A DNA stretch of 19,645 nt from the IMG/VR virus record IMGVR_UViG_2579778660_000002; one strand, written 5' to 3'. The notes under the pieces are model-generated. The model did no database searches. It saw only the letters and a list, made by a program, of their open reading frames with translations, and was not told the DNA's origin. Below, piece after piece: positions 8,354-8,610 of this stretch (within the stretch, counting starts at the first letter, position 1; every line of letters begins with the position of its first letter). Made by a program: the position numbers and the translations under genes. This DNA comes from a virus (lineage: Duplodnaviria > Heunggongvirae > Uroviricota > Caudoviricetes).

Positions 8354-8388
8354 GTATCACCTTAAATAGTGGATTGCGGTAGTAAAGA

Positions 8389-8610
8389 TTGTGCATGGCC
8401 CGTCTGAAAAAGAACAACAGCGATTTGCACGATTTATTAGTAGATTATTATATAGTCGGTATGACATTCATGTCACTGGCAGGTAAGCATTGCTGCTCTG
8501 ATGGTTATATCGGGAAAAGGTTACAAAAGGCTGAGGGCATAATTGAAGGGATGTTAATGGCATTAGATATCCGGTTAGAGATGGATATCGTTGTTAATAA
8601 CTCTAATTAA
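8389..8610 (+). pseudogene. 3' fragment of a phage-21/DLP12-type antiterminator Q gene
   Basis: Translation ...[72 protein letters not shown] resembles recalled C-terminus of QuuD-type Q; only ~70 codons, first codon TTG; lies directly upstream of the porin and lysis cassette where Q sits in DLP12-type phages. Confidence 0.55.

Follow-up and report, generated by a model that had tools for sequence, protein, structure and literature searches.

A deletion-type junction between the lambda orf28 region and the 3' part of a quuD-type Q gene in a defective prophage at the lambda attachment site of Escherichia coli

How does the left arm of a lambda-like prophage come to run, some 40 bp from orf28, straight into the 3' part of a Q antiterminator gene, and what does this arrangement leave of the phage? 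The question is posed by a 19,645-nt stretch of DNA, IMG/VR virus record IMGVR_UViG_2579778660_000002, which we analysed as a whole and call the window. An earlier note on this DNA, made from the letters alone, had described a direct joining of the lambda orf28 region to the 3' end of Q within positions 8354-8400, with loss of the regions that normally lie between them. On the evidence given below, the junction is very probably the scar of one internal deletion of ~8.6 kb in a lambda-like prophage at att-lambda, which has thereby become a non-inducible remnant.

The left end of the window identifies the site at which the element is integrated. The chromosomal gene ybhC (1-1284, minus strand) is followed by an exact match to the lambda att core, GCTTTTTTATACTAA (attL; 1331..1345, plus strand; 0 expected in shuffles), which lies between ybhC and int; a search of the window for a further copy of the core returned this match only. 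Next come a lambda-type integrase gene, int (1419-2489, minus strand), with the Pfam Phage_integrase domain and the lambda Arm-DNA-binding domain, and the excisionase gene xis (2467-2685, minus strand), both of which are apparently intact and annotated as such genes in RefSeq for APEC O78. The CII box of pI, with the TTGCGTGTAATTGC motif (2698-2711), is the sole lambda-like CII box found. The att core, ybhC and the lambda-type Int and Xis at the left end place the element at the lambda attachment site; in related genomes the right end is ybhB/bioA, which sets the site as att-lambda between ybhC and ybhB. What the window holds is a defective lambdoid prophage, integrated at its att site and carrying int and xis at one end. 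Its sequence agrees, at 99.9-100% identity, with that of the att-lambda region in E. coli APEC O78 (NC_020163) and in about 20 other complete genomes; NC_020163 is an avian pathogenic strain of serotype O78:H9 and sequence type ST23 (PMC4313913). Beyond the tail-fibre remnants and before the element reaches its right end, positions 18120-18872 hold an AraC-family regulator gene and then IS/integrase fragments, a cargo that is present also in NCTC9040, PEC1009 and ACN002.

The alignment to lambda and to the Q regions of DLP12 and phage 21 that the earlier note had proposed assigns both flanks and maps the join to the base. By blastn, window 7176-8397 corresponds to lambda 33180-34401 at 98.9% identity and to Escherichia phage ev243 (LR597639) at 99.2%, and window 8391-12023 corresponds to the Q-porin-lysis-bor segment of ev243 at 98%. 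Since ev243 is colinear with both flanks (extract positions 4378-5599 and 14232-17861), one undeleted genome serves as reference for the entire comparison. In a base-by-base three-way comparison, the left parent is identical to the window through 8394 and the right parent is identical from 8391 onwards, so that the join falls within 8391..8394, a 4-bp microhomology, GTGC, that is common to both parents and is accompanied by no inserted bases; every base of 8340-8440 is attributable to one parent or the other. The last sequence that belongs to the left parent, 8354..8390, is lambda-derived non-coding DNA upstream of orf28 (lambda 34358-34394; lambda match 33904-34398), and the breakpoint lies 38-41 bp from the orf28 start codon. 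The direct joining within 8354-8400, some 40 bp from orf28, had thus been recognised correctly from the letters.

Neither the annotation nor a scan for the att core revealed an IS sequence or an att/site-specific recombination signature at the junction, and the join has the few shared bases and the lack of filler that characterise microhomology-mediated (illegitimate) deletions. A 4-bp overlap without filler, IS end or att is the signature of this type of event, and we infer that illegitimate, homology-independent recombination between two GTGC tetranucleotides would have joined the non-coding DNA 38 bp upstream of orf28 to codons 55/56 of Q. The overlap is short, and a blunt join could give it by chance.

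Prophage repeats often lead to misassembly, and two prophage fragments brought together by assembly or scaffolding would give the same appearance. That the junction is an artefact of this kind is exceedingly improbable: the 151-bp junction sequence occurs at 100% identity, in one copy per genome, in 22 independently sequenced genomes among 5,426 complete E. coli genomes, and the flanks are colinear for kilobases on either side. The 22 genomes come mostly from poultry isolates, with some from human, dog and pig, and include APEC O78. Flanks that are at least 98% identical to one intact phage over >1.2 kb on one side and >3.6 kb on the other, together with recurrence in 22 genomes, show that the arrangement is not a chance pattern. 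The junction is already present and annotated in public genomes and is a case of ordinary prophage decay.

The colinearity with ev243 bears also on the origin of the two flanks. Were the left arm (lambda type) and the right arm (DLP12 type) derived from separate prophages and joined by inter-prophage recombination, one would not expect to meet both halves in the same order in single plaque-forming phages, as is the case in ev243 and in the other ev-series and PhiR-series phages listed. Lambdoid phages are mosaic, and the right part is 96-97% identical to DLP12 of K-12, which is located at another locus, argU; the element studied here, however, lies at att-lambda, with ybhC and the att core inside the window and ybhB at the right end in related genomes. 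Moreover, the junction offers just 4 bp of homology, so it is not the product of homologous exchange, and illegitimate joining of distant prophages would rearrange the chromosome, whereas no such rearrangement was seen. We consider such a chimeric origin very unlikely. For an internal deletion, the reading that we prefer, the ancestor would have been an ev243-like phage, in which a lambda-type left arm and immunity region preceded a Q of the DLP12/QuuD type, a porin gene and a lysis module of the phage 21 type; because it carries both flanks in one genome, ev243 is the best available model of this undeleted ancestor.

The ORF immediately to the right of the join (8389-8610) matches Pfam PF06530 (Phage_antitermQ) over profile positions 56-118 of 118 (E = 2.6 × 10−19), and its score of 69.8 bits against a cut-off of 26 makes it a member of the family. 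A complete protein would span profile positions 1-118 in ~127 aa and have its own start, so that the ORF is a gene fragment rather than a functional family member. It corresponds to residues 56-127 of K-12 QuuD, with 71 of the 72 residues identical and one substitution, V76I, and its frame is closed upstream by an in-frame stop, TAA, at 8383-8385. The Pfam match, the identity to QuuD of K-12 and ev243 and the RefSeq annotation agree in identifying 8392..8610 (plus strand) as the 3' fragment of a QuuD-type Q antiterminator gene, consisting of codons 56-127 and the stop codon. Without the first 55 codons and a start of its own the gene is a pseudogene, and RefSeq lists it accordingly in APEC O78, as a quuD pseudogene that is 'incomplete, missing N-terminus'.

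The earlier designation of this gene as a '21-type' Q holds for the family but not for the protein itself. Q21, the K-12-type QuuD and the Q of the APEC argU prophage all match PF06530, and a search with the sequence of the Q fragment found the Q21 structures (6P18, 6JNX) as its only PDB matches (E = 7.6 × 10−8); the protein, however, is of the DLP12/QuuD type and just 30% identical to phage 21 Q, which has 162 aa compared with 127 aa in QuuD. We also considered whether a second, identical quuD in APEC O78 might complement the fragment in trans, and rejected this because the junction query has a single place in that genome. A further PF06530 Q, 50% identical, is encoded in the argU prophage of APEC O78, and cross-activation in trans by this protein is possible.

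In intact ev243 the joined points lie 8,632 bp apart (extract positions 5599 and 14232). The annotation of ev243 between them comprises sieB, N, rexB, rexA, cI, cro, cII, O, P and ren, and further ninB, a methyltransferase gene, ninE, ninX, rusA, ylcG and Q codons 1-55; both the length (~8.6 kb) and the content of the deletion are read from this phage as a proxy for the true ancestor. When the sieB, N, rex, cI, cro, cII, O, P, ren, nin and Q(1-55) proteins of lambda and ev243 served as tblastn queries, no match was obtained anywhere in the window. The complete set of 46 lambda and ev243 proteins matched only kil, cIII, ea10, ral, orf28, Rz, bet 195-261, the gam N-terminus and Q 56-127, and Pfam detected no repressor in another 20 ORFs of the window, a set that takes in every longer ORF without an assignment. 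The head and tail-shaft genes are likewise all missing from the window. The element has thus lost essential genes, as is typical of defective (cryptic) lambdoid prophages. The claims of the earlier note that the sieB, N, immunity, replication and nin regions are lost, and that no repressor, N, O/P or intact Q is present, are borne out throughout the window; re-annotation recovered neither a full-length Q nor a repressor gene, and the ORF at 8389..8610 proved to be related to Q.

Since repressor/operator, N, ori, O/P and an intact Q are all missing, the gene content argues strongly that conventional induction is impossible. The proposed deletion would have removed the entire interval (~8.6 kb by the measure of ev243), including pL/nutL along with N and ori along with O. 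In such an element there would be no repressor to inactivate, no transcription from pL or pR, no antitermination by N and no start of replication; CII would be unable to activate pI, although its box remains, and int and xis would be intact with pL lost.

The orf28-Q junction is not the only deletion in the element. At 7176..7177, a second internal junction with a 2-bp overlap, AA, joins gam at codon ~18 to bet at codon 195, and this bet/gam deletion reduces the Red system to exo alone. Within exo, the 306 bp at 6278-6583 match the exoD fragment of K-12 DLP12 at 100% identity, compared with ~96% for other DLP12-like DNA, which suggests a recent exchange or a source shared with DLP12. A third junction, at 14162..14163 with a 2-bp overlap, CG, joins the 5' part of Nu1/nohD (13907-14163) to the tail-fibre region: Nu1 breaks off at profile position 92 of 164 (first ~86 codons) and is followed by the region upstream of a 736-aa S74-peptidase tail-fibre ORF. 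The deletion at 14162 removes 4 kb that APEC O78 has kept, with remnants of terminase, J and lom. Its junction was found in none of the 5,426 complete E. coli genomes and may therefore be private to the source strain. In combination with the bet/gam and Nu1-to-tail-fibre deletions, the orf28-Q deletion would leave a locked remnant that makes no virions.

Decay is visibly progressive within the lineage. Positions 3067-3073 are an empty IS2 target site, at which APEC O78 and many sister genomes carry a copy of IS2, so that the insertion is polymorphic within the lineage. The losses at the right are graded: APEC O78 keeps fragments of terminase, J and lom, ACN002 is without part of lom, and the strain of the window is without all of them. 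The orf28-Q scar itself would have been passed on by vertical descent within a single E. coli lineage, to which APEC O78:H9 ST23 belongs.

The ORFs that the element has kept intact are those of int/xis, exo, kil, cIII, ral, the porin, the lysis cassette and bor. On the left of the junction, tblastn with the lambda proteins locates kil (7174-7326), cIII (7295-7459), ea10 (7532-7900), ral (8083-8283) and orf28 (8267-8353), all on the minus strand and with 98.5-100% protein identity to lambda; the 28-aa product of orf28 is 100% identical. The Pfam matches of this left-operon segment include Ral and DUF2528. A scan against Rfam gave the lambda cIII thermoregulator alone (RF01804, 88.5 bits; 7414-7472, minus strand), and this RNA element is intact though pL and N are gone.

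On the right of the Q fragment, the first gene is an intact prophage porin gene of the OmpC/NmpC/Lc type (8799..9881, minus strand; 360 aa; Pfam Porin_1, E = 3.6 × 10−152, in agreement with the annotation). The earlier note had regarded this gene as orphaned from phage control by the deletion, which is probably not the case. The porin gene lies on the strand opposite to Q and the lysis genes, so its own promoter is presumably located upstream of its start codon, and the order Q-porin is the same in all 80 intact QuuD loci from IMG/VR and continues to the essD holin gene in 78 of them. This conserved arrangement suggests that the porin is a self-contained lysogenic-conversion gene that was never Q-dependent. 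A terminator region (8644..8785, minus strand) between Q and the porin stop codon consists of an intrinsic terminator at 8661-8644 and three tandem hairpins at ~8700-8785; in the fold of 8690-8795, three consecutive stable hairpins yield an MFE of −41.8 kcal/mol (z = −4.4). These elements are predicted to keep the porin transcript separate from the lambda left-arm genes, now located downstream of it on the same strand.

From the breakpoint onwards the DNA shares ~98% identity with that of plaque-forming ev243, so the late promoter and its terminator must be retained. The best candidate for the PR' initial-transcribed region and tR' is 10279..10340 (plus strand), where a conserved 55-nt block (10279-10333) ends in a strong intrinsic terminator, identified by terminator scan and fold as a hairpin at 10310-10331 with a T run. 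The block is 91% identical to a block in the argU prophage of APEC O78 (extract 15945-15999), the flanks of the two being unrelated, and both blocks follow an opposite-strand cargo gene that itself follows a PF06530 Q gene. Close to the conserved block lies TTTACG-N16-TATGCT (10252-10279, plus strand), a weak promoter candidate. With no functional Q, late transcription should end before it reaches the lysis genes, at the terminator that has been kept.

Other approaches to the late promoter were less informative. A consensus scan for plus-strand promoters yielded no match in either intergenic region, in which several weak candidates can be discerned by eye, and the presence or absence of the porin gene could not be used to locate PR', since all 80 QuuD loci have the same arrangement. 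In phage 21, PR' with the QBE follows directly after Q and no porin gene intervenes, unlike in the element described here. We saw no sequence resembling the 21 QBE (ATTGAGCA/AATGAGCA) in 8611-8798 and 9882-10470, downstream of Q, and rejected the transfer of the phage 21 PR'/QBE architecture for want of recognisable similarity. A CII-type paQ box was sought in the Q fragment and not found there. At 9898-9927 (plus strand, just upstream of the porin start), the sequence GAACTA-N16-TCACT is a putative match to the RpoE (sigma-E) promoter consensus. An RpoE-like site at this position would fit two points cited in PMC7918800, the reported control of the DLP12 lysis cassette by RpoE and a '-121 to +650' reporter fragment.

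The lysis genes that follow on the plus strand are those of the pinholin essD (10471-10686; PF04971, 'Bacteriophage P21 holin S', E = 2 × 10−35), the SAR endolysin rrrD (10686-11183; Pfam) and the spanins rzpD (11180-11641; Pfam) and rzoD (11400-11582; a 60-aa ORF with coordinates mapped from the K-12 annotation). The holin is 86% identical to S21 and the endolysin 99% identical to R21, so that an S21-family holin and an R21-like endolysin stand adjacent and intact, as in a phage 21-type lysis cassette; it is these proteins, rather than Q, that are truly of the 21 type. In K-12, the homologous lysis operon of DLP12 is reported to be controlled by the Q-type antiterminator, RpoE and Hha (PMC7918800). 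Since the K-12 cassette reportedly responds also to RpoE and Hha, the cassette in the window may not be fully silent, and the truncation of Q should remove only the Q-dependent component of its control. Beyond the lysis genes, bor (11673..11966, minus strand; Pfam Lambda_Bor), an iss-like serum-resistance lipoprotein gene, is a retained conversion gene; the iss genes of APEC strains are homologues of bor, and iss alleles are present on the chromosome of NC_020163 (PMC4313913).

The deletion has also brought a promoter-like site to face the left-operon genes. A sigma-70 consensus scan of the whole window gave a single 11/12 match, GTGACA-N18-TATAAT (8447..8476, minus strand), which lies inside the Q fragment and antisense to Q, faces the junction and orf28-ral and, after the deletion, is located ~90 nt upstream of orf28. 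The orf28 start is preceded by a good Shine-Dalgarno sequence, AAGGTGA, and the terminator scan found no terminator-like site between the promoter-like site and ral. Among 87 QuuD copies, the −10 element is TATAAT in 9 and CATAAT in the other 78. The perfect TATAAT depends on the V76I allele, which occurs also in some intact quuD genes; an origin of V76I/TATAAT after the deletion was therefore rejected, and the deletion did not create the promoter-like sequence, since intact Q genes already contain it. As a promoter capture, the deletion would have rendered Ral constitutive without pL or N and left the porin, bor/iss and the lysis cassette to host control, as in DLP12; from the sequence we regard this as distinctly doubtful. 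If it were true, terminators at ~8091-8076 and 7948-7927 would hold the toxic kil silent.

A broader form of this idea is that the locus was rewired by selection rather than eroded neutrally, with lethal induction lost, the porin, bor/iss and the lysis cassette kept, and Ral expressed constitutively from the antisense promoter. The site is the best sigma-70 match in the window and faces orf28 with its good Shine-Dalgarno sequence, with no terminator-like site before ral; however, a consensus match is not promoter activity, and this one lies in coding DNA and is present in intact Q genes. The lysis, porin and bor ORFs are intact, independent lineages have lost the immunity block by different deletions, and EssD, RrrD, RzpD and Bor have the same RefSeq protein accessions in APEC O78 and NCTC9040 despite these independent deletions (PEC1009 matches 3 of the 4 accessions, with a different RzpD). 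Identical proteins across lineages could nevertheless result from recent common ancestry, and the ongoing decay, that is, the IS2 insertion, the loss of lom and J fragments and the deletion at 14162, resembles neutral erosion. Selection for rewiring is, on balance, unlikely.

Comparison with related elements puts the proposed deletion into context. The right module of the window element resembles that of DLP12 (qsr') of K-12, with quuD, porin (nmpC), essD, rrrD, rzpD/rzoD, bor, ybcV, ybcW, ylcI and nohD in common at 96-97% nucleotide identity. DLP12, too, is defective by an internal deletion, which joined exoD' to 'peaD/renD and took out immunity and replication genes; its lysis cassette and conversion genes have been kept. 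It differs in being located at argU with another integrase and in having kept the nin region and a full-length quuD, with the porin gene broken by IS5, whereas the element in the window is located at att-lambda with a lambda-type int, has its deletion end-points at orf28 and at Q codon 55/56, and has a destroyed Q and an intact porin gene. Escherichia phage ev243, of the genus Nesevirus, unites both flanks in one genome (identity 99% for ea10-ral-orf28, 98% for Q-porin-lysis-bor), but has the full 8.6 kb between the joined points, another integrase, and intact bet/gam and structural genes. NCTC9040 and PEC1009 carry att-lambda remnants with near-identical int/xis, a Q-porin-lysis-bor module that is 98.9% identical, and loss of the immunity and replication genes; in contrast to the window element, their deletion is an independent one that joins recT' to 'ren (extracts 9410-9978 and 7857-8425, respectively), kil, cIII, ral and orf28 are lost as well, and the nin genes and a full-length quuD are spared.

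The different deletions, orf28-Q in the window, recT-ren in NCTC9040 and PEC1009 and exo-P in DLP12, indicate that loss of the immunity/replication block is a recurrent route of decay in lambdoid prophages. Each of them leaves the porin, bor/iss and the lysis cassette, although the DLP12 porin gene is broken by IS5. For the lineage related to APEC O78:H9 ST23, the orf28-Q deletion explains why the element at att-lambda cannot be a live phage, and the exact, lineage-specific junction sequence is usable as a clonal marker. The parts of the remnant most likely to affect the phenotype of the host are the retained bor/iss allele and the porin.
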